A stretch of DNA of 64,000 nt from Candidatus Effluviviaceae Genus V sp. (GTDB lineage Bacteria; Joyebacterota; Joyebacteria; Joyebacterales; Joyebacteraceae). The notes beneath the pieces are model-generated. The model saw only the letters and a list, made by a program, of their open reading frames with translations, was not told where the DNA came from and ran no database searches. The stretch covers positions 2,833 to 66,832 of the forward strand of contig WJMD01000097.1 in assembly GCA_014728125.1 (NCBI GenBank). Direction: 5' to 3'. Position numbers and translations under genes: made by a program. Each line of letters opens with the position of its first letter. The first letter of the stretch is position 1. Positions 683-28,456 of the stretch are shown piece after piece.

Positions 683-826
683 CGCCTGCCCGTGCGAGCC
701 GCCTCGTACGGTGCTGACGCGCCCGGCGTTCCTGGGGACGCCGGGCGTTTCTGTGTCGTGCCCGGGCCGCTCGGCTCCCCGTCGTCAGGCGTCGGCCGGG
801 CACGAAGCCGCCCATCCACTTCTGAC

Positions 827-855
827 TTGACATGCATATATTCAGATTCTATAAT
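827..855 (+). promoter_or_regulatory. consensus sigma70 promoter (TTGACA-17nt-TATAAT) in an AT-rich island upstream of the arsR-trx operon
   Basis: TTGACA sits at 827-832, an exact 17-nt spacer follows, and TATAAT sits at 850-855. The surrounding 60 bp are AT-rich in a roughly 70% GC genome. Direct repeats TGCATA (833-838, 867-872) and ATATTC (838-843, 854-859) flank the -10 element. GGAGG at 887-891 lies 7 nt before the GTG at 899. Confidence 0.5.
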
Positions 856-898
856 ATTCTTAGTTTTGCATACTCAACGAGACACTGGAGGTTCTAAG

Positions 899-1216
899 GT
901 GGCCGGCTCGAAGCGGGCGGCGGGTGAGCGGCGTCAGCCGGACGATCCGGAGCGGACGGAGCGAGCGGCCGAGGTTCTGCGGGCGCTGGCGCATCCTGTG
1001 CGCGTCGAGATCGTGCGACTGCTCGGTGAAGGCGAACTCTGCGTCAAGAGGATCGAGGAGATCCTCGGCGTGCCGCAGCCGTCCGTGTCACAACACCTGG
1101 CGCGGTTGAAGTACGCCGGTGTCATCGAGTCGGAGCGGCGGGGGCATCTGGTCTGCTACCGACTCAGAAACACGGGCGCAGCCGACGCGGTCGATGCCGT
1201 GGTCAATGAGGAGTGA
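899..1216 (+). CDS. ArsR/SmtB-family transcriptional regulator
   Basis: A winged-HTH signature is present: LRALAHPVRVEIVRLL...LCVKRIEEILGVPQPSVSQHLARLKYAGVIESERRGHLVCYRL. The GTG start at 899 has an RBS. A single Cys sits in the alpha3 position (ELCVK). The upstream part of the longer ORF from 692 has no RBS or homology. Confidence 0.85.
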   Translation: MAGSKRAAGERRQPDDPERTERAAEVLRALAHPVRVEIVRLLGEGELCVKRIEEILGVPQPSVSQHLARLKYAGVIESERRGHLVCYRLRNTGAADAVDAVVNEE

Positions 1217-1261
1217 GTGCTGCGTGAGAGGAGAACCCCGAGTGGGGGAAGGGAGAGGCAC

Positions 1262-1594
1262 ATGGATTCGACGAACGCCGTGAACGTGACAGAGGCGACA
1301 TTCGAGAACGAGGTCACGAAGTCGGACACGCTGGTGCTGGCCGACTTCTGGGCTCCGTGGTGTGGTCCGTGCCGCATCGTCGGCCCGATCCTTGAGGAGG
1401 TCGCCGGCGAGAACGAGGGGAAGGTCAAGGTCGTCAAGATCAACGTCGACGACAATCCGGGGCTCGCTCAGCGGTTCGGCATCCGCGGAATCCCCACGAT
1501 GATCTTCTTCAAGGACGGCGAACAGAAGGACATGATGGTCGGAGCGGCCATGAAGGAGAAGATCCAGGAGAAGATCGACGCGCTGCTCGAGTAG
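1262..1594 (+). CDS. trxA: thioredoxin
   Basis: The canonical motif LADFWAPWCGPCRIVGPILEE is present. The protein is about 110 aa. The ATG at 1262 is preceded by GGGGGAAGGGAGAGG. The gene lies immediately downstream of arsR. Confidence 0.9.
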   Translation: MDSTNAVNVTEATFENEVTKSDTLVLADFWAPWCGPCRIVGPILEEVAGENEGKVKVVKINVDDNPGLAQRFGIRGIPTMIFFKDGEQKDMMVGAAMKEKIQEKIDALLE

Positions 1595-1617
1595 ATTCCC
1601 GAGGAAGGAGTGACCGG

Positions 1618-2217
1618 ATGAGACGAAGCACGTTGCTCGTTGCCGCGATGCTCGTGGCCGTCGCGGCGTTCAGTCTGCCGATGGCCGGGTGCGGCACGAC
1701 GGAGGAGACGCCCGGGACCGAGGAGACGAGCCGGGAGCCGGCAACGCCCGGGACCGGAGAGAACGACGATGTGACCGGAACGGCAGTCGGACAGTTCCCG
1801 CCCGAGTTCGAGCTTCCCGATCTCGACGACAACACCGTGACCCTGGCCGACTACGAGGGCGACGTCGTGATCATCGACCTCTGGGCGACGTGGTGCCCGC
1901 CGTGCCGCGAGGAGATCCCGTTCCTTATTGAGCTCTACGAGGAGCACAGGAACGACGGGCTCGTCGTGATCGGAATCGGACTCGACCAGGGCGGAGCGGA
2001 TGTGCTTCGGCCGTTCGCGGAGAAGCATGACATCTCCTATCCGATCCTCGTCGGCGGACGTGAGATATCGAGGACCTACAGGGCCTCGAGCATCCCGACA
2101 ACGTACATCATCGGTCGGGACGGCAGGATCGCGGCGCGCCACGTCGGTTTCCATCCATCGATGAAGGCGGAGATGCGCGAGATGGTCGAGGGGCTGCTCA
2201 AGCCTGTTGAGGCATAG
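1618..2217 (+). CDS. TlpA/ResA-like thiol-disulfide oxidoreductase lipoprotein (redoxin family)
   Basis: A signal peptide with lipobox LPMAGC is present. The thioredoxin-fold motif IIDLWATWCPPCREEIPFL is followed by a redoxin C-terminal region (GIPTTYIIGRDG). Confidence 0.85.
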   Translation: MRRSTLLVAAMLVAVAAFSLPMAGCGTTEETPGTEETSREPATPGTGENDDVTGTAVGQFPPEFELPDLDDNTVTLADYEGDVVIIDLWATWCPPCREEIPFLIELYEEHRNDGLVVIGIGLDQGGADVLRPFAEKHDISYPILVGGREISRTYRASSIPTTYIIGRDGRIAARHVGFHPSMKAEMREMVEGLLKPVEA

Positions 2218-2402
2218 GAGACCTGGGGGGTCCGTGTGAAGTGGAGCGGCATCCTCGTCCCGCTGGGCTTCGTCGCGCTGTGGATCATCCTGCAGCTCGT
2301 CGTGCTGCCCCGGCTGGGCGTGTCGACGTGACTCAGCCCGTCGTGCGGGCCCGCGGAGCGGGCCGAGTCGGAGGCTGAGGGGAACGATGAGGAGAGCGGC
2401 CT

Positions 2403-2795
2403 GTGAGCGGTTCGCGCGTCACGGTGCGCAAGTCCGCCGGCGAGCTGACGATCGAAGGGCCGGGTGGGGTGGAACGCTTCAGCGTGAGCATCGGCTCGAA
2501 CCCCGACCTCGCGGACAAGCTCGAGGTGGGAGACTGCAGGACGCCCGAGGGCGAGTTCCCGATCGTCTCGATCGAGGACTCCAGTGAGTGGGAGCATGAG
2601 GGCCGGCGGTCGTACGGGCGGTACTTCCTCCGGCTCTTGTGTCCCCCCTGGGAGGGCATCGGCATCCACGGCACCGACGAACCGGAGCGCCTCGGGACCC
2701 CCGCGTCGCGCGGCTGTATCCGCATGTCGGACGAAGGGCTCGCCCGCCTCGTCGAGCTCGTCGAGATCGGGACGATCGTGCGCATTGTCCCTTAG
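2403..2795 (+). CDS. L,D-transpeptidase catalytic-domain protein (YkuD-like)
   Basis: The catalytic signature GIHGTDEPERLGTPASRGCIRM (His...Cys of the YkuD fold) is present. The protein is short (130 aa) with no obvious signal peptide, so the start and topology are uncertain. Confidence 0.7.
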   Translation: MSGSRVTVRKSAGELTIEGPGGVERFSVSIGSNPDLADKLEVGDCRTPEGEFPIVSIEDSSEWEHEGRRSYGRYFLRLLCPPWEGIGIHGTDEPERLGTPASRGCIRMSDEGLARLVELVEIGTIVRIVP

Positions 2796-2920
2796 CGGGA
2801 GTGGACCGCCCCACAGCAAACAGGTTGACACGACCATGTGGCGGCGGGTACGATTCGCACTGCCTCGGTCGGCGCGCCGCGCCGGCCCATTCACGACCAC
2901 AACGAGATCCTGGAGCTTCG

Positions 2921-3595
2921 ATGTCGACGGGCCAGTTCGTCGCCGTCGCCGGCAACATCGGCGTGGGGAAGACCCACCTCACCACGCTCCTGGCTAACCA
3001 TCTGGGCTGGCGCGCGTACTACGAGCCGGTCATCGATAACCCGTATCTCGACGACTTCTACGCCGACATGAGGCGGTGGTCGTTCCACCTGCAGGTCTAC
3101 TTCCTTTCCCAGCGTTTCGAGATCCATCGCGCGATGCTCAGGACGCCCGGCCCGTGCATCCAGGACCGGACGATCTACGAGGACAAGGAGATCTTCGCCG
3201 AGACGCTGCACCGACGGGGACTGATGTCGGATCGCGACTATTCGAACTACCGGGCCCTCTTCGACGCCATGACGAGCTTCCTGCGCGCGCCCGATCTCGT
3301 CGTCTACCTCAGAGCGGATGTCGGCACGCTCGTCGACAGGATCTGCTCGAGGGGGCGGGACTGCGAGCGCGAGATCTCGCCGGACTACCTGGCGGAGCTC
3401 AACGATGCGTACGAGGCATGGTCCGAGAGGGCCGGCAGTCAGACGAGTGTGCTGGCCATCGAGACCGACGGGCTCGATCTGGTGACTGACGAGCAGGCCA
3501 TCAGGGACGTCCTGGAAGAGATCGTGGGCAGACTGGGGGTGGCCTCGGGGGGATCTCAGGCCGAGGACGTGCGGGAACGGGTCGTGGCTGCCTGA
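2921..3595 (+). CDS. deoxynucleoside kinase (dAK/dGK/dCK family)
   Basis: A P-loop VAVAGNIGVGKTHLTTLLA is present, followed by the dNK-family motifs YYEPVIDNPYLDDFY...FHLQVYFLSQRF...DRTIYED and a LID-like RICSRGRDCERE. The start was taken at the in-frame ATG 2921; the upstream part of ORF 2639 overlaps the Ldt gene. Confidence 0.85.
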   Translation: MSTGQFVAVAGNIGVGKTHLTTLLANHLGWRAYYEPVIDNPYLDDFYADMRRWSFHLQVYFLSQRFEIHRAMLRTPGPCIQDRTIYEDKEIFAETLHRRGLMSDRDYSNYRALFDAMTSFLRAPDLVVYLRADVGTLVDRICSRGRDCEREISPDYLAELNDAYEAWSERAGSQTSVLAIETDGLDLVTDEQAIRDVLEEIVGRLGVASGGSQAEDVRERVVAA

Positions 3596-3734
3596 AGTCG
3601 CGGTCCCGGGTCCGAATCCCACGCACATGAGCAACGTCCTGTTCCCCTGTGCGCTCGCCGCACGGGCGGGCCGGGAGAACCGTATCCCGGCGAACGAGGT
3701 TCGCGCGGCCGCACGCCGTAAGTACGGCATATTC

Positions 3735-3763
3735 TTGACGTTTGGGCATCGTGGTGGTATAAT
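3735..3763 (+). promoter_or_regulatory. consensus sigma70 promoter (TTGACG-17nt-TATAAT) upstream of the second TlpA-like gene
   Basis: TTGACG sits at 3735-3740, the spacer is 17 nt, and TATAAT sits at 3758-3763. The start codon ATG 3786 lies 23 nt downstream. Confidence 0.5.
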
Positions 3764-3785
3764 GAGCGTGAGAACAGGGGGGCCC

Positions 3786-4352
3786 ATGAAGAGCAGGAGA
3801 CGCGCCGTCCTTGCGACGGTTCTGGCGCTTGGTCTCGTGTTCGCGTGGACGTCTGTATCGTATTCCGACGACCGCGTGGCACCAGACTTCACACTCCCCA
3901 GCATCACCGGGGAGGATCTACAGCTTTCGGAGCTTCTTGAGGAAGGCCCGGTCATCGTGGACTTCTGGGCCACGTGGTGCAAGCCGTGCATCAAGGCCTT
4001 CCCGGAGCTTCAGTCGATCCTTGACAACTACACACACTGCGGTCTGAGGGTCGTCGCAGTCTCGATCGACGGTCCTCGTTCGAGCTCGAAGGTCCCTTCG
4101 TTCATAAAGTCGAAGGGGTTCACCTTCGACGTGGTGCTCGATCCCGGACAGAAGGTGGCGCGGAAGTACCACGTGACCTCTGTACCGCGGACGGTCCTGG
4201 TCGGACAGAACGGCCGGGAGATCTTCGCCTACACGGGCTACCGGCCGTCGCACCACAGGAAGATGGAGGAGGCGCTCGAGGAGCTTTTCCCGGAGGGCTG
4301 CGAGGAGCCGGAGGATGAAACGGCCGAGACGGCGGAGGATGCCGGTGAGTAG
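3786..4352 (+). CDS. TlpA-like periplasmic thiol-disulfide oxidoreductase
   Basis: MKSRRRAVLATVLALGLVFAWTSVSYS is a signal peptide. The motif VIVDFWATWCKPCIKAFPEL and a redoxin C-terminal part (VTSVPRTVLVGQNG) follow. An acidic C-terminal tail is present. The ATG at 3786 lies behind the perfect promoter. Confidence 0.85.
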   Translation: MKSRRRAVLATVLALGLVFAWTSVSYSDDRVAPDFTLPSITGEDLQLSELLEEGPVIVDFWATWCKPCIKAFPELQSILDNYTHCGLRVVAVSIDGPRSSSKVPSFIKSKGFTFDVVLDPGQKVARKYHVTSVPRTVLVGQNGREIFAYTGYRPSHHRKMEEALEELFPEGCEEPEDETAETAEDAGE

Positions 4353-5814
4353 ATACGCCACGATTCTCGCCGCGGCGCTCGCGCTGGCTCTGCCGCGGGC
4401 CGTCCCGGCCGACGAGATCTACGCGACGGGCGTCGTCACCTCCGAGTACGGCTATCACACCGAGGCGGAGGCGTCGCTCTTCGATGCCAGGGTCGAGCTC
4501 GACCTCGAGACCGGACCGGTCCGTCTGGGCTTCGTCCATCGCTTCTATGAGCCGAGCGACGAGGCGTATCCCGGCGCGCTCGACGTGCCGGGTTCCGAGT
4601 TCCGCCAGCGCTTCGCCGAGTTCACGAAGGACTCGTTCAGCGTGCGCGCGGGCGACTTCTTCGCCACGTTCGGGAACGGACTGACGCTCCGGAGCTACGA
4701 GGAGGTCGAGCTGGAGCACGACACCTCGCTCGACGGCGCGCTCGTCGAGATGGACCGGGGCAGCTTCTCGTTCCAGGGGCTCGCCGGGACGACCGAGGAG
4801 ACGGTGACGGCCTCGCGCGTTCGCGAGCACGTCGTCAGGGGTCTGAGGCTCAGCACGAACGTGGCCGGGAAGCTCGACATCGCGGCCAGCGCGGTCGGCA
4901 GGTCGTCGGAGCTTCAGGATGACGAGCAGGAACTGCCCGACGAGGTCGCCCATTTCGAGGACCGGACGCTGGGAGTCGAGACATCGGCATGGCTTGGTCC
5001 CGTGTCGTTCGCGGCCGAGTACGTCGGCCGCTCGGGCGAGAACCCATACGCGGAGACCGGTGACGTCGAGGGACACGGGACGTATCTCGCGACCACCGTC
5101 AACCTGCCGTGGGCGACGCTCTTCGGCGAGTACAAGGACTACTCCGAGCTCGGCCACTATCTGATCAACCCGCCGACCTGCGTGCGGGAGCACCTCTGGA
5201 CGCTGATGAACCGCGTGACCTACGAGATCGACCTCGAGGACGAACGCGGGTTTCTCGGCGAGATCAGCGCTCCGGTCGGGGACGCGCTCTACGTGACGGG
5301 CGGGGCCTCCGAGGCGCGCAGCCAGGACGGCGACCTGAGTCACTGGGAGATCTTCGGGCACGTCGACCACGCGTTCTCCGGCAGCATCTACGGCTCGTTC
5401 GCTGGCTCGTGGTCAAGGGAGTACCTGGGAAACGAGTATAACGACTTCACGGAGCACATGTCGGGCGCGGCCGAGCTGGTGCTCGTGCCGGCGTCGGGGC
5501 AGCCCGTGGAGCTGGTCGTCGAAGGACAACTGACCGAGGAGTTCTACGGGAGCGAGCACACTGATTACCTGTTCTCCTTCACGACCTATCCCGGTGACGG
5601 GATGACGTTCAGCGTCCTGGCCGAGACGACCGACGACGAGACGAGCGAGCGTACCGTGTGGACCTCCTTCGAGGTGCGGCGGCAGATCGTCAGGGACATC
5701 GAGGCGTCCTTCATGATGGGAACCGAGAGGGGCGGAAAGAAGTGCACCGGCGGGATCTGCTACAACGAGCCGGAGTTCGAGGGCGTTCGGGTCAGACTGA
5801 CCGGGTTCTTCTAG
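4345..5814 (+). CDS. putative outer-membrane beta-barrel protein (family unassigned)
   Basis: With the GTG start at 4345, GGAGG lies 6 nt upstream, giving MSRYATILAAALALALPRAVPA as a signal peptide. Alternative in-frame ATGs exist at 4315 and 4339. Alternating hydrophobic patterns run throughout and the protein ends in the aromatic residues LTGFF, typical of OMPs. The gene overlaps the TlpA-like stop. Confidence 0.5.
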   Translation: MSRYATILAAALALALPRAVPADEIYATGVVTSEYGYHTEAEASLFDARVELDLETGPVRLGFVHRFYEPSDEAYPGALDVPGSEFRQRFAEFTKDSFSVRAGDFFATFGNGLTLRSYEEVELEHDTSLDGALVEMDRGSFSFQGLAGTTEETVTASRVREHVVRGLRLSTNVAGKLDIAASAVGRSSELQDDEQELPDEVAHFEDRTLGVETSAWLGPVSFAAEYVGRSGENPYAETGDVEGHGTYLATTVNLPWATLFGEYKDYSELGHYLINPPTCVREHLWTLMNRVTYEIDLEDERGFLGEISAPVGDALYVTGGASEARSQDGDLSHWEIFGHVDHAFSGSIYGSFAGSWSREYLGNEYNDFTEHMSGAAELVLVPASGQPVELVVEGQLTEEFYGSEHTDYLFSFTTYPGDGMTFSVLAETTDDETSERTVWTSFEVRRQIVRDIEASFMMGTERGGKKCTGGICYNEPEFEGVRVRLTGFF

Positions 5815-5822
5815 GAGGGGTC

Positions 5823-7181
5823 GTGCCGAACACGCTCCGGACAACTCTCAGACGGGCCCTCGCGGTCGCGGCGCTCGCGGCCGTCGGCACAGCACTCGGC
5901 GGCGGCTGCGACTGGTTCGACGATCCGATCGAGCCGAACCTCACGCCCGAGACGTCAATGACGACCTGTCCGTCCCAGGTCGACGCCGGGACCTCGGTCA
6001 CGCTGTCGTGGACTGGGACCGACGTCGACGGCAGCGTGGTCGCCTACGCGTGGGCGTTCGACGACACGATCGACGGATACACGACGGAGACGACTGCCGT
6101 CTTCGACTCCGTGGATGCGGGGGCCCACACGTTCGAGGTCGCGGCGGTCGACGACGACGGCGACACCGACCCGTCGCCCGCGGTCTGCTCGTTCGTCGCG
6201 ATCGACGAGGAGGAGAACCTCCCGCCCGAGACCGAGATGATCACGTGTCCAGGAACGGTGTCGGTCGGAGACGACGTGACGCTCCGTTGGTCCGGCAGCG
6301 ATCTGGACGGAACGGTCGTCTCGTACCGTTGGACGCTGGACGGATCGGACGAGACGACGACGACCGACACGACGCTCGTCGTATCGGACGTCACGGAGGG
6401 CGGACATACCTTCAGCGTCGCGGCCGTCGATGACGACGGCGACGCCGACGGTACGCCCGCGACCTGCTCGTTCACCGCCACGGCGGCCGGGGAGCCGGTT
6501 CCGCGGATCGTGCTGGTCGAGCTCTTCACGACGCACTCGTGCGCGAACTGCCCGAACGCCGAGGAAGGGCTCCACATGATGCTCAGCGAGTACGGATCCG
6601 ACAGCCTCTGCGTCGTGGCCTACCACGACCTGGGGCCTCCGATCGGGCCGGACGTGCTGGCCACGCAGGAGATGATGGACAGGATCGACTGGTACACCGA
6701 CATCCACGGGTTCGAGGACCTGCATCCGCTGGCCCTCTTCGACGGGGACTTCTCGCGGCCGGTCCCGGGCGCGTTGAGTCCGGAGGCTGCCGCCGAGGAC
6801 TACCGTACGGAGATCGAGGTCAGCCGGAAGGTCCCGTCCGCTCTGTCGGTCGACCTGAGCGGGTCGCTGGACGGAGCGCGGGCGAGCGTGACGGTCCGGG
6901 TGCGCGCGCACGACGACCCCGGCGCCGGCGACCTGGTGCTCCGGACCGTGGTCGTCGAGGACGAGGTGCAATCGCAGGGGCGGGTGTTCGACTTCGTCGC
7001 CCGTGACCTTCTCCCGGACGAGCCTCTGACGATGACCGCAGTGGGTGATTCGGCCGTGGTGACCAGGTCGTTCGACGTGGGCCCCGGCTGGAACATGGAC
7101 CATATCGATGTGATCGCGTTCGTCCAGGACGACACGACGCAGGAGGTCATACAGGCCGGGCGACTCGCGACCGGCATGTAG
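5823..7181 (+). CDS. lipoprotein with two tandem Ig-like repeats and a C-terminal thioredoxin-like CxxC domain
   Basis: GTG 5823 follows AGGAGGGG. The lipobox is ALGGGC. Two 93-aa repeats are present (TCPxxV..VTLxWxGxDxDGxVVxYxW...HTFxVAAVDDDGD). The C-terminal domain carries IVLVELFTTHSCANCP and a region paralogous to the N-terminal domain of the next gene (FDFVARDLLP...DHIDVIAFVQDDTTQEVIQAG). Confidence 0.6.
   Translation: MPNTLRTTLRRALAVAALAAVGTALGGGCDWFDDPIEPNLTPETSMTTCPSQVDAGTSVTLSWTGTDVDGSVVAYAWAFDDTIDGYTTETTAVFDSVDAGAHTFEVAAVDDDGDTDPSPAVCSFVAIDEEENLPPETEMITCPGTVSVGDDVTLRWSGSDLDGTVVSYRWTLDGSDETTTTDTTLVVSDVTEGGHTFSVAAVDDDGDADGTPATCSFTATAAGEPVPRIVLVELFTTHSCANCPNAEEGLHMMLSEYGSDSLCVVAYHDLGPPIGPDVLATQEMMDRIDWYTDIHGFEDLHPLALFDGDFSRPVPGALSPEAAAEDYRTEIEVSRKVPSALSVDLSGSLDGARASVTVRVRAHDDPGAGDLVLRTVVVEDEVQSQGRVFDFVARDLLPDEPLTMTAVGDSAVVTRSFDVGPGWNMDHIDVIAFVQDDTTQEVIQAGRLATGM
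5946..6503 (+). repeat. tandem in-frame repeat (2 x 279 bp) encoding Ig-like modules
   Basis: PETSMTTCPSQV at 5946 and PETEMITCPGTV at 6225 begin two units that are similar at the protein and nucleotide level. The period is 279 bp. Confidence 0.6.
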
Positions 7182-7297
7182 ATACGACGACGACCGAAGA
7201 GAGTCAGCAAAGGGAAGAAGGAACACTGTCTCCACAGAGCGCACGGCGACAGGGGCCTCAGACAGTAGGAGTGAAATCGCCGCGAAAGGAGAGCAGC

Positions 7298-9316
7298 ATG
7301 ATGAAGCGAACGGCGATCGTGGCAGTGCTCTGCGCCGTACTGGTGGGAGTCTCAGTGAACGGGGTCGCGGCAGACCGCGTCGTCCTCGCCGAGATGTTCG
7401 GCGGGACGTGGTGCGGATACTGCCCCGACTCGTCAGGCGCCCTTCAGATCCTCAGGGGCGAGTTCAGGGACGACCAGTTCCTGGCCATTTACAATCACGT
7501 GGGCGGCGCCGACCCGTGGCGCACGTCCGAGTCCGAGAGCCGCGCCAGCTGGTACAGCGTCGGCGGCGTCCCGCACGTCGAGTTCGACGGGGTCACCGAC
7601 GTTGTCGGCTCGTACGGGTCGCCCGAGGCGACGGCCGACGCCTTCCGGCCGATCGTCAACAGCCGTCTGGGCGTCTCGGCTCCGCTGACGATCGAGGCCG
7701 TCGGCATCATCGGGTCGTCGGCCGGCTGGGTCGACGCCACCATCAAGGCGACCGAGTCGATCTCCCACACCGATCTCAGGGCGCAGTTCGTCCTCATCGA
7801 GAACGGGATGAGCTACGGCGGGAAGGACTACGACTTCACGGCCCGTGATTACCTGCCGGTCGAGAGTCTCTCGCTCTCCTCGCCCGGCGACTCCGTGGTG
7901 GTCAACAGGAACTTCACCATCGATCCGACCTGGGACCACACGAACATGGAGCTCGTCGTCTTCGTCGAGCGGACGACGGTCAAGCAGATCGTCAACGCCG
8001 GACTCATGACGAACCCCTATCAGTTCGACTTCGAGACGGAGGTCTACGCGGCCGAGGTGCCGCTGATGGGCGGCAGCGTCTTCACGACCGTTCTCAGGAA
8101 CACAGGAACGGTGACCGACACCATCACGGTCAACATCGAGAACGTCGAGATCCCCGACGGCGTCTCCTCGTTCGATTGGTTCGCGACCTACTGCGACGAG
8201 GAAGGTCTGTGCTACTTCGGCGAGCATGACTTCGTTCTGGCGCCTGGAGAGTTCGAGACGCTCGACGTGCACATGGACGACTACAATGGATCGGTCCCCG
8301 GCATGGCGGTCACTCGCCTCTTCGGCACCAGCGCCGGCGACACGACGGCGCTCGAGGAGGAGTACTACGCGACCTTCGTCGGCATGCCTTCCATCCTGGT
8401 CGTCGAGGACGACGGCGACGACACATACGGGACGTACATGAAGTCCGCTCTCGACAGCGTCGGATACGCCGGACACCTGTGGGACGCCCACACACTTGGG
8501 CGCCCGGGTGCGGACCGGCTGGCGTCGTACTGGGCCGTCCTGTGGACGACCGGCAACGGCGACGCCACCGACATCACGGCAGACGACGAGTCGGATCTCA
8601 TGAGCTTCCTCGACGACGGCGGCAACCTGTTCCTCGCCAGCATGAACTACCTGTCGTCGCGCGCCGCAACGAACACCTTCATCACCGACTACCTGAATGT
8701 CAGCTCGTGGACGGACGATGCCGGCGGCTTCGTGATGACGGGCGTGAGCGGCGACATCATCTCCGACGGCATGTCGCTCGGGCTTCTGGGCGGGGACTTC
8801 GCCCCGGGCGCGACCGACAAGTTCGTCATCTCCTCGCCGGCGGATTCGATCTTCTACGCCTCCAACGGCGTGCGCGGACTCAAGGTCGATGACGGCTACA
8901 AGGCCGTCTTCACCTCGTTCCCCTTCGAACTCGTGAAGACGACGACGGCCGACCCCGACAACCAGATGACGCTCATCGACCGCATCCTCACCTGGTTCCA
9001 GATGACGGGTGTCGACGATGTGATCCCGGGCGTGCAGAGGCTGTCGCTCGGCCAGAACTACCCGAACCCCTTCAACCCGGTGACGACCATCGAGTTCTCG
9101 GTGCCCGCGAGCGCGGAGCGCGTTGAGCTCGAGGTCTACAATGTGGCCGGAAGACTGGTCCGGACGCTCGTCGACGGCGAGCTCGAGGCCGGACCGCACA
9201 GGGTCATCTGGGACGGCACGGACGGGAACGGGAAGAGCTGCTCCTCCGGCATCTACTTCACCAGACTGACGGCCGGACGGGAGACGAAGACCGGGAAGAT
9301 GACGCTTCTCAAGTAG
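7298..9316 (+). CDS. T9SS cargo protein: N-terminal thioredoxin-like CxxC domain + uncharacterised middle domain + C-terminal T9SS sorting domain
   Basis: AAGGAG precedes ATG 7298, and MMKRTAIVAVLCAVLVGVSVNGVAA is a signal peptide. The N-terminal domain carries VVLAEMFGGTWCGYCP. The C-terminal 85 aa are GQNYPNPFNPVTTIEFSVP...VYNVAGRLVRTLVDG...GIYFTRL...KMTLLK, which is Por_Secre_tail/FlgD-Ig-like. Confidence 0.7.
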   Translation: MMKRTAIVAVLCAVLVGVSVNGVAADRVVLAEMFGGTWCGYCPDSSGALQILRGEFRDDQFLAIYNHVGGADPWRTSESESRASWYSVGGVPHVEFDGVTDVVGSYGSPEATADAFRPIVNSRLGVSAPLTIEAVGIIGSSAGWVDATIKATESISHTDLRAQFVLIENGMSYGGKDYDFTARDYLPVESLSLSSPGDSVVVNRNFTIDPTWDHTNMELVVFVERTTVKQIVNAGLMTNPYQFDFETEVYAAEVPLMGGSVFTTVLRNTGTVTDTITVNIENVEIPDGVSSFDWFATYCDEEGLCYFGEHDFVLAPGEFETLDVHMDDYNGSVPGMAVTRLFGTSAGDTTALEEEYYATFVGMPSILVVEDDGDDTYGTYMKSALDSVGYAGHLWDAHTLGRPGADRLASYWAVLWTTGNGDATDITADDESDLMSFLDDGGNLFLASMNYLSSRAATNTFITDYLNVSSWTDDAGGFVMTGVSGDIISDGMSLGLLGGDFAPGATDKFVISSPADSIFYASNGVRGLKVDDGYKAVFTSFPFELVKTTTADPDNQMTLIDRILTWFQMTGVDDVIPGVQRLSLGQNYPNPFNPVTTIEFSVPASAERVELEVYNVAGRLVRTLVDGELEAGPHRVIWDGTDGNGKSCSSGIYFTRLTAGRETKTGKMTLLK

Positions 9317-9339
9317 CGCCGCTTCGGAGCACACTGCAT

Positions 9340-9370
9340 CCCGGGCGCCCTGAAACGACGGGCGCCCGGG
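9340..9370 (+). terminator. GC-rich perfect hairpin (11-bp stem, 9-nt loop), likely intrinsic terminator
   Basis: CCCGGGCGCCC-tgaaacgac-GGGCGCCCGGG lies 24 nt after the stop of the T9SS cargo gene. There is no U-tract, as is common in high-GC genomes. Confidence 0.4.
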
Positions 9371-9409
9371 TGCCTTCCGGGGGGACGCACAGCTGAAAGG
9401 GCACGTTCG

Positions 9410-11734
9410 ATGCGACACGATTCGCGACTCCTGAGCCTTGTGCTCGCAGCGATCCTCGCCGTCACGCTTCAGGCCGCCGCCTATCCGAGGGACGATGCGG
9501 CTGTCGTCGAGATCGACGTCCATTCAAGGGCGGAGATCCACCATCTCAACGAGCTCGGCATGGACATCATGAACGTGCGGGACGGCGTTGCCGAGATCGC
9601 CGCCGTGCCCTCGGAGATCGACGTGCTGCGAGCCAACGGCTACATCCCGCGCATCGTCATGGAGCGCATGATCGACGGCGTGGCCTCGCTGCGTCTCGAG
9701 GACCGTGGGGAGTACCACAGCTACACCGAGCTGACGAACGACATGGCGGCGTGGGCTTCGGCCTATCCGAACATCACCGAGCTCGTCTCCATCGGTCAGA
9801 GCGTCCTCGGCCGCGAGCTCTGGGCGATGAAGATCACCGACAACCCGGCCATCGAGGAGTTCGAGCCGGAGATCCAGTGGATCGGGGCGCACCACGGCGA
9901 CGAGACGATCAGTGTCGAAGTGTGCTACTACATGATCGACCACCTTCTCGAGAACTACGGTACAGACCCCCAGGTCACGTGGCTCGTCGACGAACGCGAG
10001 ATCTGGATCATCCCGATGTTCAACCCCGACGGCCACACGAGCGGCTCCCGATACAACGGGAACGGCGAGGACCTCAACAGGGGCTACCTCTGTCCGTGCG
10101 GCTGCAACGCCGGCTCGGCCATGGCCCAGCCCGAGCACCAGGCGCTCGAGGCGTTCAACGAGCGGATGAACCCCGTGACGTCGCTCACGTTCCACTCGGG
10201 CGCGGTCTACGTCAACTACCTGTGGGACTACACGTATTCGGCCACGCCCGATGAGGCGATGCTCATCACGCTCTCCGAGGGCTACAGCTCGTACACGGGC
10301 CTCCCTGTGACGAACGGCGCCGACTGGTACATCGTCCACGGGAGCTGTCAGGACTGGTGCTACGACCAGCGCGGTGAGATCGACACGACCATCGAGGTCT
10401 CGACGACCAAGGACCCGCCCCAGTCTTCGATCGATCCGATCGTGTCGGACAACATCCCGGCGATGCTCTATCAGGCGCGGAAGTCGGGGAAGGGCATCCG
10501 GGGGCTTGTGACAGACGGCGAGACCGGCGAGCCGCTGTATGCGACGATCTCGATCCCCGAGATCGGAAAGGACGTCTACACGGACCCGGACGTCGGCGAC
10601 TACCACCGCATGGTCGAGTCGGGTACCTACACGGTTGTCTGTGAGGTCGAGGGATACCCCACCGAGACGGTCTACAACGTCTCGGCGAACCTCGACACGT
10701 TCGTCGTCGTCAACTTCGCCATGGAGCCTCCGCCCCGCGGCACGGTCGCGGGCTACGTCACCGACGAGCTCATGAACCCGATCGAGGCGACCGTCGAGGT
10801 CACCGACCTGACGGGCTACTCGGCCTCGTCGGACCCGGCGACCGGGTACTACGAGATCCCCTACATCCCGGCAGGCACGCACACGGTCCGGGCGAGCGCT
10901 CCGGGCTTCAGGACCGAGGAGCGGACCGGCGTCGAGGTTGTCGACAACACGACCTCGACGGAGAGCTTCGCGCTCGTCGCGCCGGTCTTCTACGACGACT
11001 TCGAGAGCGGGCTTTCGGGCTGGAACGGCTCGTGGGCGACGACCACCTCCGAGGCCATGAGTCCGACCCACTCGATGACCGACAGCCCGGGCGGCCAGTA
11101 CGGCAACAACGACTACACCGTGACCACACTGGCCAGCCCGGTCGATCTGACCGGTCATGCCGAGGCGGCGCTCGTCTTCTGGCACCGGTACGACACCGAG
11201 GCCGGATACGACATCTGCTACGTGGAGGTGAGTTCGGACGGCGGTTCGAGCTGGACGCAGGTCGGTTCGTACGACGGCCTGCAGAACGACTGGGTCGAGG
11301 AAGAGATCGACGTCTCTTCCTGGGCGGGGACGAGTCAGTTCCTCGTCAGGTTCACGCTGGACTCGGACGGCTGGATCACGGACGACGGATGGTACGTCGA
11401 CGACGTCCAGGTCTTCGGCGACCAGACGCTCTCGGGCATCGATGAGGAGATCGTCCGGGCCCCGCGCGTGGCCAACTACCCGAACCCGTTCAACCCGGTG
11501 ACCTCCGTGACCTACTCGGTACCGTCGCCCGGAAGCGTGACACTCGGGATCTACGACGTCTCGGGGCGGCTCGTCCGGACGCTGGTCGACGGAGCCGTCG
11601 AGGTCGCGGGCGAGCACAGCGCGACGTGGAACGGGACGGACGAGGGCGGCCGCTCGGTCGCCGGCGGCGTCTACTTCGCCCGTCTCGTGACCGACGCGGG
11701 GGAGGCCTCCTCGAAGCTCGTGCTGCTCAAGTAG
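9410..11734 (+). CDS. T9SS-secreted M14-family zinc carboxypeptidase with carboxypeptidase-regulatory-like domains
   Basis: A signal peptide is present. The M14 core is HSYTELT...ELWAMKITDNP...WIGAHHGDETIS (HxxE zinc ligands)...NRGY...FHSGA. Two CarboxypepD_reg-like beta-sandwich segments follow (GIRGLVTDGETGEPL; GTVAGYVTDELMNPIEATV). The C-terminal domain YPNPFNPVTSVTYSVP...VYFARL...KLVLLK is a T9SS sorting domain. Confidence 0.85.
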   Translation: MRHDSRLLSLVLAAILAVTLQAAAYPRDDAAVVEIDVHSRAEIHHLNELGMDIMNVRDGVAEIAAVPSEIDVLRANGYIPRIVMERMIDGVASLRLEDRGEYHSYTELTNDMAAWASAYPNITELVSIGQSVLGRELWAMKITDNPAIEEFEPEIQWIGAHHGDETISVEVCYYMIDHLLENYGTDPQVTWLVDEREIWIIPMFNPDGHTSGSRYNGNGEDLNRGYLCPCGCNAGSAMAQPEHQALEAFNERMNPVTSLTFHSGAVYVNYLWDYTYSATPDEAMLITLSEGYSSYTGLPVTNGADWYIVHGSCQDWCYDQRGEIDTTIEVSTTKDPPQSSIDPIVSDNIPAMLYQARKSGKGIRGLVTDGETGEPLYATISIPEIGKDVYTDPDVGDYHRMVESGTYTVVCEVEGYPTETVYNVSANLDTFVVVNFAMEPPPRGTVAGYVTDELMNPIEATVEVTDLTGYSASSDPATGYYEIPYIPAGTHTVRASAPGFRTEERTGVEVVDNTTSTESFALVAPVFYDDFESGLSGWNGSWATTTSEAMSPTHSMTDSPGGQYGNNDYTVTTLASPVDLTGHAEAALVFWHRYDTEAGYDICYVEVSSDGGSSWTQVGSYDGLQNDWVEEEIDVSSWAGTSQFLVRFTLDSDGWITDDGWYVDDVQVFGDQTLSGIDEEIVRAPRVANYPNPFNPVTSVTYSVPSPGSVTLGIYDVSGRLVRTLVDGAVEVAGEHSATWNGTDEGGRSVAGGVYFARLVTDAGEASSKLVLLK

Positions 11735-11761
11735 TTTTCGGAACGGTTCTGGCATTCTCAA

Positions 11762-11788
11762 GCGGGGCGGCTCATCGAGCCGCCCCGC
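11762..11788 (+). terminator. perfect 12-bp GC hairpin after the M14 gene
   Basis: GCGGGGCGGCTC-atc-GAGCCGCCCCGC lies 28 nt after the stop codon. Confidence 0.4.
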
Positions 11789-11807
11789 CGGTGTCTGTGG
11801 ACCGCCC

Positions 11808-11837
11808 TTGACACGCGGCGAGGGGCGGTGACATTAT
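11808..11837 (+). promoter_or_regulatory. putative sigma70 promoter for the transporter gene
   Basis: TTGACA sits at 11808-11813, an 18-nt spacer follows, and CATTAT sits at 11832-11837. The -10 element is weak. Confidence 0.3.
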
Positions 11838-11888
11838 CGCGCCCGTTGCGGAGACGGCGACTCGAAGAGGAAGGGACGCTTACTCTCG

Positions 11889-13274
11889 GTGAAGCGACGC
11901 AGGGTTCTGAGCATCCTGATCGCGCTGGTCGTCTGTGCGGGCATCATGCTGGCGCCGACGCCGTCCGGCCTCACGCGCGAGGGACAGAACGCGATCGCCA
12001 TCTTCGGGCTCTGTTTCGTTCTGTGGGTAGGGAACGCACTTCCCCTCTCCGTCACGAGTCTCTTCGCCATCGTCCTGCTCCCGACGCTCCGCGTGCTCCC
12101 GGCGTCGCGGTCGTTCGCCCTCTTCGGCAGCCCAGTCGTCTTCTTCATCCTCGGGGCCTTCATCCTGGCCGCGGCCATGATGCGGTCGGGTCTCTCGACG
12201 AGGCTGGCGCTCGCCTTCCTCAGACGTTTCGGTGGCAGTCCAGGCCAGCTGCTGGCCGGCGTCGTCTTCTCGGGCGGCTTCCTGGCCTTCTGGATGCCGT
12301 CGCACGCGGTCGCCGCGCTCCTGTTCCCGATCGTCCTCGAGATCGTCCACGCTCTTGAACTCCGTCCGATGCGGAGCGGCTACGGCCGCGCCCTGCTTCT
12401 CGCGCTCGCGTGGGGGGCCGTGATCGGCGGCGTCGCCACCTTCCTCGGCGGCGCCAGGAACCCGCTCGCGCTCGGCATCCTCCAGGAGCACTACGGGCAG
12501 TCGATCGGTTTCCTCGAGTGGATGATCGCCGTGGCCCCGTTCGCCGTGGCCCTCATGGGAGTCGGCTACCTCGTGCTCTCCAGGGGATGCAGGATCGAGA
12601 TCGACGACGTCTCGGAAGCCAGGCGGGCGCTCGACAGAAAGGCCACTGAGCTCGGGCCGCTGACGGCCAGGGAGAAGGGCGTCGCGACGATCATGGTCCT
12701 GACGATCGGCGCGTGGATCGTAGCCGGTCAGAACATGGGACTGGCCTCCATCTCTCTGCTCGCCGCTGTCTCGCTCTTCGTCTTCAACCTGATCGACTGG
12801 CAGAGCGTCGAGGAGTACGTCAACTGGGGCGTCATCCTGATGTACGGGGGTGCCATCGCGATCGCGACCGCGCTCCACGAGTCCGGCGGCGCGGCGTGGA
12901 TCGCGCAGGTAGCCGTCCAGCGCCTCTCGGGTCTGCCGCCCTTTGCGATGTTCATGGTCTTCGCGGTCGCCGCCATCTTCCTGACCGAGGCCATCAGCAA
13001 CGTCGCCGCCGTCGCACTCTTTCTTCCCATCGCCTTCGGGATCGCCGAGGGGAGCGGTCTCGCGCCGGTCCCGGTCGTCTTCGCCGTGGCGGTCCCCGCC
13101 GGTCTGGCGTTCGCGCTGCCGATGGGGACTCCGCCCAACGCGATCGCCTACTCGGCCGGCTACTACAGACTGAGGGACTCAGTGATTCTCGGAGCCGTCC
13201 TCAAGCTGGCCGCGCTCGCACTCCTGGCGCTCGCGGTGAAGGTCTACTGGCCGCTTCTCGGCATCGACATCTAG
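11889..13274 (+). CDS. DASS/SLC13-family anion:sodium symporter (CitT/ArsB-like permease superfamily)
   Basis: The protein is polytopic with duplicated halves. Recognisable motifs include FLTEAISNVAAVALFLPIA and GTPPNAIAYSAGYY, matching the SLC13/DASS hairpin-loop motifs. The start is GTG 11889. Confidence 0.7.
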   Translation: MKRRRVLSILIALVVCAGIMLAPTPSGLTREGQNAIAIFGLCFVLWVGNALPLSVTSLFAIVLLPTLRVLPASRSFALFGSPVVFFILGAFILAAAMMRSGLSTRLALAFLRRFGGSPGQLLAGVVFSGGFLAFWMPSHAVAALLFPIVLEIVHALELRPMRSGYGRALLLALAWGAVIGGVATFLGGARNPLALGILQEHYGQSIGFLEWMIAVAPFAVALMGVGYLVLSRGCRIEIDDVSEARRALDRKATELGPLTAREKGVATIMVLTIGAWIVAGQNMGLASISLLAAVSLFVFNLIDWQSVEEYVNWGVILMYGGAIAIATALHESGGAAWIAQVAVQRLSGLPPFAMFMVFAVAAIFLTEAISNVAAVALFLPIAFGIAEGSGLAPVPVVFAVAVPAGLAFALPMGTPPNAIAYSAGYYRLRDSVILGAVLKLAALALLALAVKVYWPLLGIDI

Positions 13275-19330: not shown

Positions 19331-19340
19331 GGGGGACGAC

Positions 19341-19847: not shown

Positions 19848-19853
19848 GACCGG

Positions 19854-20813: not shown

Positions 20814-20942
20814 GCCGGACTCCTTCAGCCTTCAGTCAGGTGGCAATGGCGTCTTCATTCCGATAGAATCCACGGAGGCGCGGCCGCCGTGTCTCCGGCA
20901 TGATACACGACGACAGCCGCCTTCCCAAGCGGAGGAGAGCGG

Positions 20943-23941: not shown

Positions 23942-23960
23942 CCGGTCGCCGGTCATCCCT

Positions 23961-25325: not shown

Positions 25326-25477
25326 CGCTTCACCCCCCGATGCTCCCTGCCCGCGTCCGGGCGACGCACGGCGGACCAGGTCATTGTAGCGGCTGGTCCG
25401 GCGATGACAACCCTCCAGTGGTGCTGCACTTGGGGCGTCCCTCGGCGCCGGAAAGCCTTTGACCGCGGCGGGTCACC

Positions 25478-28353: not shown

Positions 28354-28456
28354 TGTGTCCGGCGCCGCCGGTTCTTCCCTTATCCCAGACTGACGAAGCC
28401 GGCCACTTGTTGTCTCCGAGGACGGGGCCGCGACCGTATCGAGAGCGGGAGTCCCC

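Follow-up and report, generated by a model that had tools for sequence, protein, structure and literature searches.

Do the thiol-redox genes gathered within 8.5 kb of this DNA form a single chain, or more than one system? The original prediction took the former view, namely one ArsR-controlled redox chain reaching from the cytoplasm to the cell surface across the whole 8.5 kb, in which ArsR would sense a metal or oxidant, and thioredoxin together with both TlpA-like proteins would keep the exported CxxC proteins reduced. The window (the entire stretch analysed, 64,000 nucleotides) comes from a Candidatus Eisenbacteria metagenome-assembled genome. All the genes previously listed are present on the + strand, and the layout of ArsR, trxA, two TlpA-like genes, an outer-membrane protein and two CxxC proteins was confirmed. 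GC3 is 0.79-0.91 for the genes measured, and the ArsR frame listed from 692 lies outside the GC3 filter. Two unrelated genes between TlpA1 and TlpA2, encoding YkuD and a deoxynucleoside kinase, had been omitted. The features are as follows:

140-682: DUF2914 gene, upstream neighbour (profile assignment)
719..748, +: terminator-like GC-rich hairpin with T-rich tail (13-pair stem, 10 GC pairs), ending the DUF2914 gene
827..855, +: sigma-70-type promoter, perfect TTGACA-17-TATAAT, driving ArsR-trxA-TlpA1
899..1216, +: ArsR/SmtB-family HTH regulator, 105 aa (NF033788, 86 bits, cutoff 55; HTH_5)
1262..1594, +: TrxA, cytoplasmic thioredoxin, WCGPC (TIGR01068, 125.8 bits, cutoff 96.8; PF00085, 108 bits)
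1618..2217, +: TlpA1, TlpA/ResA-like thiol-disulfide oxidoreductase lipoprotein (AhpC-TSA, Redoxin and Thioredoxin_8 matches)
2403..2795, +: YkuD-type L,D-transpeptidase domain protein (PF03734, 62.8 bits)
2921..3595, +: deoxynucleoside kinase (PF01712, 177.6 bits), with its own promoter-like site at 2825-2854
3735..3763, +: extended -10 promoter, TTGACG-17-TGGTATAAT (11/12 to consensus, TG present)
3786..4352, +: TlpA2, exported TlpA-like oxidoreductase (type-I signal peptide, WATWCKPC)
4345..5814, +: DUF6029 outer-membrane beta-barrel (PF19494, 81.7 bits)
5823..7181, +: gene 9, lipoprotein with two PKD domains and a C-terminal HBP35/Omp28-like domain
7298..9316, +: gene 10, with signal peptide, HBP35-like domain, middle region and T9SS type A C-terminal domain
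9410..11734, +: M14 zinc carboxypeptidase with T9SS/FlgD_ig tail, conserved downstream neighbour in Eisenbacteria

Two Transcription Units

Position 827, the first coordinate of the region as originally described, is in fact the -35 box of its promoter, and the gene itself (899-1216) begins with a GTG codon preceded by the Shine-Dalgarno sequence GGAGG. The promoter is flanked by an inverted repeat, ATKCR ... YGMAT, which is kept in 9 Eisenbacteria loci and is a candidate ArsR operator. ArsR contains two conserved cysteines (ELCV and VCYRL), not the single one that had been described. TlpA1 has a conserved lipobox (MAGC), an acidic linker and a WCPPC site, and its match to the ResA subfamily (E=1e-28) falls under the cutoff. 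Unit 1 (827-2217) would thus consist of an autoregulated ArsR-family repressor co-transcribed with a cytoplasmic thioredoxin and a TlpA-like lipoprotein.

The second TlpA-like gene does have its own promoter, as had been proposed, and this site is kept in 10 Eisenbacteria loci; although it is as well conserved there as the ArsR promoter, the ArsR-type inverted repeat is absent from it. Because YkuD and the kinase intervene, the TlpA2 promoter is independent and the operator is not common to both promoters, ArsR-trxA-TlpA1 is most probably a transcription unit separate from the TlpA2 operon. The position of the YkuD gene between the redox units is conserved, with no evident redox role.

These observations bear directly on the idea of a single ArsR-controlled chain. 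The genes share one strand, the block is conserved throughout Eisenbacteria, ArsR-trxA-TlpA1 are closely spaced after one strong promoter, and the usual ultimate donor to TlpA-type proteins is cytoplasmic thioredoxin, through DsbD/CcdA pathways. However, the two parts are split by YkuD, the kinase and an additional promoter-like site, and the near-consensus TlpA2 promoter carries no ArsR-type repeat. Moreover, where TlpA, DUF6029 and a CxxC domain occur as a unit in Marinimicrobia, at Stahlbacteria-like loci and elsewhere, ArsR, Trx and TlpA1 are missing. Each of the 10 distinct Eisenbacteria contexts whose flanks are long enough contains the block (from 12 locus records, three of which are one sequence), but the flanking DUF2914, M14, symporter and TPR genes are equally conserved within the phylum; therefore, co-conservation there implies no function, and within-phylum synteny is uninformative. 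Overall, we regard a single 8.5-kb module under ArsR as quite improbable.

HBP35-Like Domains in Genes 9 and 10

Genes 9 and 10 each carry a domain of ~220 aa in which a thioredoxin part is joined to a beta-sandwich (6498-7178 and 7370-8026, respectively), with the motif SCANCP in gene 9 (Cys codons 6540-6542 and 6549-6551) and WCGYCP in gene 10 (7412-7414 and 7421-7423). The two domains share 29% identity (E=1e-32 across 221 aa) and are, judging from this similarity, paralogues. Modelled with AF2, residues 25-243 of gene 10 (pLDDT 94) display thioredoxin topology followed by a beta-sandwich, with the CxxC at the N-terminus of helix 1 and an invariant proline before strand 3, in agreement with the proposal that the CxxC segments are thioredoxin-type active sites. 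The expected likeness to thioredoxin/Omp28-like folds was also seen: Foldseek returned HBP35 (5y1a, E=1.4e-11, TMq 0.77) as the best match of the gene 10 domain and the Omp28 domain (2r2c) as the second. Elsewhere in these proteins, the lipid-attachment motif of gene 9, in which GGC is followed by DWFxDP, is invariant, and gene 10 ends in its T9SS domain at 9071-9316; for the middle region (8027-9070), searches for family and PDB matches returned none.

HBP35 of Porphyromonas gingivalis and gene 10 have the WCGYCP site in common, HBP35 residues 36-54 (VVLEVFTAEWCGYCPGG) aligning with gene 10 on the active-site motif, and both are of the T9SS type. HBP35 is a T9SS cargo (PMC2907840; PMC3120885) whose reduction of insulin requires C48/C51 (PMC2907840). 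Since it is thus a T9SS cargo with proven thioredoxin activity, a T9SS-delivered surface thioredoxin is not new in kind, and the suggestion that such a protein would be unusual does not stand. In addition, earlier work cited in PMC2907840 showed that hbp35 complemented an Escherichia coli dsbA mutant, so HBP35 is able to oxidize as well.

Selenocysteine in Relatives

A search at E<=1e-3 yielded 9144 representatives of the HBP35/Omp28-like family, and the CxxC is kept in 131 of the 134 that cover the region. Among Eisenbacteria, nine gene-10-type (T9SS-tailed) genes have TGA in place of the first Cys codon (L004, L014, L015 twice, and L018-L022), and in these genes the upstream signal peptide remains in frame. 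An invariant hairpin, CGCC-CGUGC-GGCG, follows the UGA codon at a distance of 18-30 nt, counted from its U, and is missing from the Cys forms. Further UxxC forms occur at L028 (three tandem genes), L099 and L105. The exchange of TGA and Cys codons at the first active-site position, together with the hairpin, marks a selenocysteine/cysteine pair.

The TlpA2-DUF6029 Operon and its Linkage Across Genomes

The 8-nt overlap of the barrel gene with the TlpA2 stop was reproduced: the best DUF6029 start is GTG 4345 (alternative, ATG 4315), and the TlpA2 stop is TAG 4350-4352. Because start and stop overlap, the two genes appear to be translationally coupled. The gap between DUF6029 and gene 9 is likewise 8 nt; a scan of 5803-12000 revealed no terminator-like site, and a weak 5-pair one lies at 5790-5802, within the 3' end of the DUF6029 gene. 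The M14 carboxypeptidase is an unproven member of this unit. The AF2 model of DUF6029 (pLDDT 89.8) has ~22-24 strands and matches generic large barrels only; neither a plug domain nor a TonB box was found in it, with ~10 residues between the signal peptide and strand 1. A Cys477/Cys482 hairpin before the final strand is invariant in 45 Eisenbacteria sequences and four other lineages.

Co-localization of TlpA, the outer-membrane protein and CxxC domains in relatives, an expectation of the original prediction, recurs beyond the phylum. The order TlpA-DUF6029-A1 domain is found in Marinimicrobia L026, L027, L090, L104 and L110, and the components are reshuffled in Stahlbacteria L024/L025, L030, L031 and L080, where T9SS-tailed and lipoprotein forms both occur. 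The TlpA genes of Marinimicrobia, Stahlbacteria and L027 are nearer to TlpA2 than to TlpA1, which identifies TlpA2 as the member corresponding to the TlpA of this cross-phylum unit. All loci were found through the CxxC-domain anchor. In an 80-locus metagenome set, TlpA is present at all four DUF6029-bearing loci and at 2 of the 76 others (p ~1e-5, our hypergeometric estimate). HBP35/Omp28-like genes are mostly solitary (76 of the 80 loci, which belong to one clade, have no DUF6029), and L028, L032 and the Eisenbacteria selenocysteine paralogues at L018, L019 and L022 also have neither TlpA nor DUF6029 nearby; therefore, partnership with TlpA and DUF6029 is not obligatory for the HBP35-like domain.

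Might this adjacency be no more than inherited gene order, DUF6029 being a Wzi-like, polysaccharide-related barrel and the TlpA paralogues doing ordinary periplasmic work for pathways whose genes lie elsewhere (cytochrome c, copper proteins or methionine sulfoxide reductase)? DUF6029 resembles the Wzi barrel by HHpred (PMC9603273), its gene is followed 12-25 kb downstream by a cluster for polysaccharide export, and GlnRS-type genes, present upstream at Eisenbacteria loci and again at Marinimicrobia loci, hint at ancestral synteny. However, Wzi is just one among many equally good barrel matches, the three components co-occur with changed flanks and internal order (Stahlbacteria-like loci, L027 and L080), the presence of TlpA goes with DUF6029 and not simply with the CxxC domain, and the gene overlap implies coupling. 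This explanation is accordingly very unlikely.

A third possibility is ligand acquisition, in which the surface HBP35-like proteins would chiefly bind heme, a metal or a selenium/sulfur compound, with DUF6029 as the uptake channel, the lipoprotein paralogue as its lid, and TlpA2 merely servicing cysteines, for example in ligand release or protein maturation. In the FCB group, surface lipoproteins are commonly paired with a barrel (SusCD, BtuBG), and gene 9 has an acidic stretch after its lipid-modified cysteine. The known physiological role of HBP35 is heme use: its C-terminal part (M135-P344) binds hemin without need of the Cys pair, and an hbp35 mutant grows poorly under limiting hemin (PMC2907840), but its hemin-binding residues are not defined. 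Against this reading, Sec/Cys exchange at the first cysteine typifies catalytic redox residues rather than passive binding, the barrel has no plug or TonB box, and heme, siderophore and TonB/ExbBD genes were not found nearby. We consider it unlikely.

Proposed Mechanism and Implications

We lean, by a little more than an even chance, toward two separate thiol-redox units, the second being TlpA2-driven reduction of HBP35-like domains with DUF6029 as partner. No ccm, res, CcdA or DsbD genes were detected by a Pfam scan of the GC3-supported ORFs across the whole 64-kb window, which upholds the claimed absence of ccm and res genes and leaves the TlpA paralogues without an explanation of that kind. 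No CcdA/DsbD-type electron importer occurs in the window or the syntenic flanks; a membrane protein of this type, encoded elsewhere, would reduce TlpA2. Unit 2 (3735-9316) would then comprise exported TlpA2, the coupled plug-less barrel and the two HBP35/Omp28-like paralogues. At the outer membrane, TlpA2 may hand electrons to, and so reduce, the HBP35-like domains, with DUF6029 as their likely partner there; gene 9 is a lipoprotein, and gene 10 would be exported and surface-anchored through type IX secretion. We know of no mechanism for bringing reducing power to the external side of the outer membrane.

The HBP35-like domains could thus function as disulfide/selenenyl-sulfide oxidoreductases acting on an envelope or extracellular substrate. 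The Sec/Cys exchange and the retention of the CxxC provide new evidence for a redox function of HBP35-like domains.

Gene Organization

The window belongs to a MAG of Candidatus Eisenbacteria; an NCBI protein entry under that name has 100% identity to the product of 7298-9316, and a separate exact-sequence look-up of the window proteins gave no records. Genes were chosen by third-position GC (GC3) together with family searches, the G+C content of the source genome being 66-69%, and the features that concern us here are as follows.

140-682, + strand, DUF2914 gene
719-748, + strand, terminator-like hairpin
827-855, + strand, sigma-70 consensus promoter (12/12 match)
899-1216, + strand, ArsR gene
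1262-1594, + strand, trxA
1618-2217, + strand, TlpA1, a TlpA-like lipoprotein
2403-2795, + strand, YkuD L,D-transpeptidase
2921-3595, + strand, deoxynucleoside kinase (dNK), with a promoter-like site at 2825-2854
3735-3763, + strand, extended -10 promoter (11/12 match)
3786-4352, + strand, TlpA2
4345-5814, + strand, DUF6029 barrel
5823-7181, + strand, gene 9, a lipoprotein with two PKD domains and a CxxC domain
7298-9316, + strand, gene 10, with a CxxC domain, a middle region, and a T9SS C-terminal domain
9410-11734, + strand, M14 carboxypeptidase with a T9SS tail

The original prediction took 827-9316 for a single 8.5-kb thiol-redox module under ArsR control. Its layout is accurate, including the 8-nt overlap between TlpA2 and the barrel gene (GTG at 4345 vs. 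TAG at 4350-4352, with GGAGG at 4334-4338), and the genes that it listed are all present; however, it omitted the YkuD and dNK genes between the two TlpA paralogues, and position 827, given as the start of the ArsR gene, belongs to the promoter at 827-855.

The rest of the window encodes housekeeping functions, polysaccharide biosynthesis and export, LptD, and similar functions, and no tRNA genes were found in it. Two adjoining, well-supported ORFs at 51282-53884 (455 and 429 aa, GC3 0.86-0.88) gave no significant hit in Pfam. The gene at 38760-40325, which adjoins a histidine kinase (37422-38705), joins a PglZ domain to a response regulator receiver domain.

Fold and Family of the CxxC Domains

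The CxxC domains of genes 9 and 10 are paralogues (29% identity, E=1e-32) with the active sites SCANCP and WCGYCP, respectively, the latter being that of HBP35, the 35-kDa haemin-binding protein of P. gingivalis. An AlphaFold (AF2) model of residues 25-243 of gene 10 (pLDDT 94, pTM 0.91) has the topology b-a-b-a-b-b-a followed by 8-9 strands, which corresponds to a thioredoxin fold plus a beta-sandwich, with the CxxC at the N-terminus of helix 1 and an invariant Pro ahead of strand 3. This confident model bears out the proposal that the CxxC segments are thioredoxin-fold active sites. In Foldseek searches of the PDB, the best match to the gene 10 domain was HBP35 (5y1a; E=1.4e-11, TMq 0.77, 248 columns), over its whole length, and the second was the Omp28 domain 2r2c, in which the beta-sandwich corresponds. 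Sequence profiles place the CxxC of the family on C48/C51 of HBP35 (WCGYCPGG), within residues 36-54, VVLEVFTAEWCGYCPGG.

Both window domains match Omp28-type models (PF11551, NF033782, and NF045500) significantly, with E down to 1.8e-18. Because their scores nevertheless all fall below the curated cut-offs, including those for Pfam Omp28 (PF11551; 24.9 bits for gene 9 and 22.4 bits for gene 10 vs. a gathering threshold of 34.9) and for NCBIfam NF045500 "Omp28-related selenoprotein" (53.3 and 67 bits vs. 200 required), the proteins are named here HBP35/Omp28-like rather than members of either family.

Recombinant HBP35 reduces insulin faster than E. coli thioredoxin, an activity that is lost in the C48S/C51S mutant, and it binds haemin via its C-terminal part (PMC2907840). 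It is a T9SS cargo, secreted and glycosylated by this system (PMC2907840, PMC3120885), and hbp35 was described as a 1.1-kb transcript in a 2010 paper. Gene 10 shares with it a signal peptide, a thioredoxin domain with WCGYCP, a beta-sandwich, and a T9SS C-terminal domain, although identity is only about 17% and gene 10 is longer by a region of about 350 aa. Unlike HBP35, gene 9 is a lipoprotein with PKD domains in place of the T9SS tail, and the window genes differ further in that a TlpA-like reductase and a DUF6029 barrel are encoded in their operon. A T9SS-delivered surface thioredoxin, initially regarded as unusual, therefore has a precedent in HBP35, which is such a protein as well as the best structural match.

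Gene 10 combines an N-terminal signal peptide with a T9SS C-terminal domain (FlgD_ig 48.7 bits; Por_Secre_tail 29.9, cutoff 27; TIGR04183 28.7, cutoff 23), whereas gene 9 has a lipobox and no T9SS C-terminal domain. The lipobox of gene 9 and the residues that follow are invariant and acidic (GGC/DWFxDP, where C is the lipobox Cys; 5823-5900 and orthologues), a stretch that is, by analogy, reminiscent of the surface-export signals of Bacteroidota lipoproteins. By E. coli rules, the Asp at position +2 of gene 9 would predict retention in the inner membrane. The middle region of gene 10 (8027-9070, about 350 aa) has no Pfam or PDB sequence match; because it is combined with other N-terminal domains in other Eisenbacteria proteins, for example, a metallophosphatase (P0070-P0074), it resembles a stalk or anchor module that can be reused ahead of the T9SS tail.

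Probable Catalytic Cysteine and Selenocysteine Forms

An exhaustive profile search gave 9144 cluster representatives at E<=1e-3, of which 2810 remain at E<=1e-10; among the best 150 of the 9144, the CxxC is kept in 131 of the 134 that cover the motif. Many homologues appear truncated at the N-terminus because TGA replaces the first Cys codon, as is seen in the DNA. The orthologue at L004 (an Eisenbacteria contig) has such a TGA with a signal peptide in frame upstream (...AELFGSTG*GYCPNA). Nine Eisenbacteria gene-10-type genes carry TGA at the first Cys (L004:9971; L014:9744; L015:1066 and 3183; L018:10043; L019:1328; L020:2076; L021:2247; L022:6960) and 13 carry TGC or TGT. The window counterpart is the TGC at 7412, the window genes having TGC at both Cys positions, and the gene-9-type lipoproteins always have Cys, with no Sec forms. 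Gene callers stop at the in-frame TGA and cut these orthologues to about 621-626 aa, so that both the signal peptide and the redox motif are missing from their public annotations. Some Eisenbacteria genomes hold a Cys copy in the conserved locus and a Sec copy elsewhere, and the Sec paralogues on L018, L019, and L022 are of this displaced kind, with no TlpA or DUF6029 partners.

In these orthologues, then, an in-frame UGA is aligned with Cys and the frame is kept on both sides, as in bacterial selenoproteins. An invariant apical hairpin, CGCC-CGUGC-GGCG, lies 18-30 nt from the U of UGA in all nine TGA genes; two outer pairs covary, and the folding z-score is -2.2 to -3.2 in three of the four sequences folded. 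At the corresponding position, the Cys forms encode other residues and the hairpin is absent. These properties are those of a SECIS, and we regard the hairpin as a SECIS-like candidate element.

Beyond the Eisenbacteria loci, UxxC forms with a signal peptide in frame upstream were found in three genes of contig L028 and in L099 and L105. The L028 genes are tandem paralogues (3824-7181; motifs YUGTC, GUGAC, and SUSYC), each of which gene callers break into an ORF of 37-39 aa and a larger one, and no TlpA or DUF6029 gene is near them. The name of the NCBIfam model "Omp28-related selenoprotein" agrees with these findings; Sec forms occur in that model and in the orthologues, whereas the window proteins use Cys.

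A Sec/Cys pair is a standard comparative sign of a redox-active residue in selenoproteome studies. The conservation of CxxC together with the Sec/Cys exchange is evidence that the first Cys of the motif is probably catalytic, and it is the motif and this exchange only that bear on a putative reductase activity of the gene 9 and gene 10 domains. Separately, six tandem HBP35-like genes stand before or around TlpA and DUF6029 at L031:124-8135, and one copy without CxxC (TWSENGP) suggests a non-catalytic paralogue.

DUF6029 Barrel

The barrel protein matches DUF6029 (PF19494) with 81.7 bits vs. a gathering threshold of 27, and its AF2 model is all-beta, ends in a C-terminal F, and matches outer-membrane barrels. 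An invariant pair, C477/C482 (5743-5760), lies in a G-G-x-x-C-x-G-G-x-C hairpin just before the last strand; it is kept in 45 sequences from Eisenbacteria as well as in the proteins of Marinimicrobia, of the Stahlbacteria-like loci, and of L027 (a marine contig), that is, in four or more lineages. Outer-membrane barrels seldom have conserved cysteines. A third Cys, in a PPTC motif at about residue 289, is kept in some lineages only.

A specific identity with Wzi, an usher, a TonB-dependent transporter, or MtrB was rejected, as all of these are comparable generic barrel matches (TM about 0.45-0.5); the likeness to MtrB is no better than that to ushers, TonB-dependent transporters, and porins. 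A large polysaccharide biosynthesis and export cluster (18002-34840), encoding UDP-glucose dehydrogenase, a flippase, a sulfatase/phosphodiesterase, a Wza-like OPX protein, Wzz, Wzy, and glycosyltransferases, begins some 12 kb downstream of the DUF6029 gene and bears only on a Wzi-like reading of the barrel.

TlpA-Like Proteins and ArsR

TlpA1 and TlpA2 match AhpC-TSA, Redoxin, and Thioredoxin_8 and are exported thioredoxin-fold proteins with a WCxxC motif, like TlpA/ResA/CcmG: WCPPC in the lipobox protein and WCKPC in the signal-peptide protein. In NCBIfam they match ResA, StoA, and TlpA best, though below every equivalog or subfamily cut-off (ResA 100 and 92 bits, cutoff 170; TlpA 58 and 44, cutoff 230; DsbE 49 and 45, cutoff 123). 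Periplasmic reductases of the TlpA/ResA/CcmG (DsbE) type are fed by CcdA/DsbD. When the GC3-supported genes of the 64-kb window were scanned with Pfam, none was a ccm, res, sco/cox, CcdA, or DsbD gene, as the original prediction had it for ccm and res, so that the TlpA genes are not explained there by cytochrome maturation, and no ccm/res or CcdA/DsbD genes were found in the syntenic flanks of relatives. Unlike those of TlpA/ResA/CcmG, the conserved partners here are the DUF6029 barrel and HBP35-like proteins rather than ccm/res.

The regulator is an ArsR-family protein (NF033788, 86.1 bits, cutoff 55) with the HTH_5 domain common to ArsR/SmtB regulators (PF01022, 51.4, cutoff 22). BigR is a thiol-based member of this family, and the BigR equivalog score is 62 vs. 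a cutoff of 155. Two Cys are invariant among orthologues, in ELCV and VCYRL; alpha3 (ELCVKR) has a single Cys, in contrast to the CxC of ArsR, and the orthologue alignment contains neither canonical metal site (alpha3 CxC or an alpha5 His/Asp/Glu cluster).

The ArsR gene adjoins thioredoxin-type genes, and all genes from 827 to 9316 lie on one strand, an arrangement with which a single ArsR-controlled chain would be compatible. The ArsR and TlpA2 promoters are each conserved across Eisenbacteria. At the ArsR promoter (826-875), an inverted repeat ATKCR-N~21-YGMAT brackets the -10 box at nine Eisenbacteria loci (ATGCA ... TGCAT in the window) and is a candidate ArsR operator, as expected under autoregulation. 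The TlpA2 promoter (TTGAC-17-TGnTATAAT) has no ArsR-type inverted repeat; as the two promoters thus share no operator, the second operon is not regarded as being under ArsR control. ArsR, Trx, and TlpA1 are, moreover, missing from the TlpA-DUF6029-HBP35-like units of other phyla. A single ArsR-controlled chain is accordingly considered unlikely, and 827-2217 is treated as a separate thiol-related operon whose link to the second operon would at most be indirect, for example, with cytoplasmic Trx as the ultimate electron donor.

Gene Linkage Across and Beyond Eisenbacteria

In Eisenbacteria, the block from DUF2914 to the M14 peptidase is kept at every locus with enough flanking sequence (10 distinct contexts in 12 locus records). 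Within-phylum synteny was rejected as evidence of function; it says little on the point because the flanks (DUF2914, M14, symporter, and TPR protein) are equally conserved. A narrower CxxC-domain alignment searched against genome contigs gave Eisenbacteria matches only. The triad of TlpA, DUF6029 barrel, and HBP35-like gene(s) recurs outside the phylum, however, which argues against inherited synteny as the whole explanation and shows that the TlpA-OMP-CxxC link extends to other phyla. A Marinimicrobia locus (L026) has a TlpA-like gene, DUF6029, and a T9SS-tailed HBP35-like gene, arranged as they are in the window; the marine contig L027 (63% G+C) encodes an HBP35-like T9SS protein, TlpA, DUF6029, and a second HBP35-like protein; and loci of Stahlbacteria and related lineages (L024/L025, L030, and L031) have TlpA-like and DUF6029 genes with between two and six HBP35-like genes, some encoding T9SS-tailed proteins and others lipoproteins, in an order and with flanks that differ from the window. 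The TlpA proteins of all these loci are nearer to TlpA2 than to TlpA1.

In a survey of 80 metagenome loci of the HBP35-type "CPGAAMG" clade, for which sampling was anchored on the CxxC domain and not on DUF6029, four loci had the triad and 76 had no DUF6029; a TlpA-like gene was present at 4/4 DUF6029 loci vs. 2/76 others. These counts point to a TlpA-DUF6029 association in the presence of HBP35-like proteins. A universal link of the CxxC domain to TlpA and DUF6029 was rejected on the same counts, and L032 has neither partner.

Two class-I GlnRS/GluRS-type genes stand just upstream of the unit in both Marinimicrobia (L026:1105-4247) and Eisenbacteria (L001:1-2977), and this shared pair may be a remnant of a cross-phylum ancestral gene order. 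In one Eisenbacteria lineage (L001:13881-15773), a Mur-ligase-like (CapB-type) gene, CapC, and a small ORF lie between M14 and the Na/sulfate symporter; these inserted CapB-type/CapC genes are of the poly-gamma-glutamate synthesis type and are absent from the window.

Functional Implications

Taken with the predicted folds, the active site, the operon signals, and the gene association, the second operon is, we are inclined to think with modest confidence, an outer-membrane or surface thiol/selenol oxidoreductase unit. In such a unit, TlpA2 would be the periplasmic reductant, passing electrons to the HBP35-like domains; the lipid-anchored and the T9SS-anchored HBP35-like protein would serve as its catalytic end-points, presumably exposed at the surface to their substrate; and DUF6029 would be their outer-membrane partner, possibly in a physical complex. 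The rival readings, all held less likely, are ligand uptake of the kind suggested by the part of HBP35 in haem use, the single ArsR-controlled chain, and inherited synteny alone. Haemin binding by HBP35 speaks for the first of them, and the conserved, Sec-exchangeable active site fits the oxidoreductase reading.

A bolder reading, which we consider rather unlikely, is that the oxidoreductase unit relays electrons across the outer membrane by way of thiols or selenols and would thus be a "porin-thioredoxin" equivalent of the porin-cytochrome conduits. TlpA2 would then reduce the gene 9 HBP35-like domain or the DUF6029 Cys pair, which would be lodged in a wide, plug-less barrel, and the barrel-lodged component would in turn reduce the T9SS-anchored surface HBP35-like (Cys or Sec) protein. 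The likeness to MtrCAB conduits would be a functional ("works-like") analogy only, as the redox centres here are CxxC/UxxC and not haem; no haem-binding motif, cytochrome c family match, or haem-related Pfam match was found on the unit's proteins. If true, the relay would enable the cell to reduce extracellular disulfides or oxidants.

HBP35-type T9SS thioredoxins, TlpA-type reductases, and ArsR are already known, and Sec Omp28-related forms have been flagged by curators. Our literature searches gave no report of a conserved TlpA-DUF6029-HBP35-like arrangement in which a lipoprotein is paired with a T9SS form, nor of the invariant C477/C482 pair, nor of Sec and Cys forms alternating, with a SECIS-like hairpin, in Eisenbacteria; nothing was found on the Omp28-related selenoprotein form or its gene partners, and no relevant paper connected Omp28/HBP35-like proteins with selenoproteins, with T9SS selenoproteins, or with thioredoxins of Eisenbacteria.

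HBP35 has long been a puzzle: it shows thioredoxin activity yet is placed on the cell surface, a site for which, to our knowledge, no reductant is known. The family to which it is related is very large (about 9000 clusters at 50% identity), selenocysteine takes the place of its active-site Cys in several lineages, and its genes are encoded with a periplasmic TlpA-type reductase and a Cys-bearing DUF6029 barrel in at least four lineages. The unit gives DUF6029 a first functional context and, even if the link concerns only maturation or nutrient uptake, provides a useful annotation of three poorly named families in uncultured phyla. Overall, it is a testable candidate for the delivery of reducing power to the outer membrane or surface in T9SS-using FCB-group phyla.
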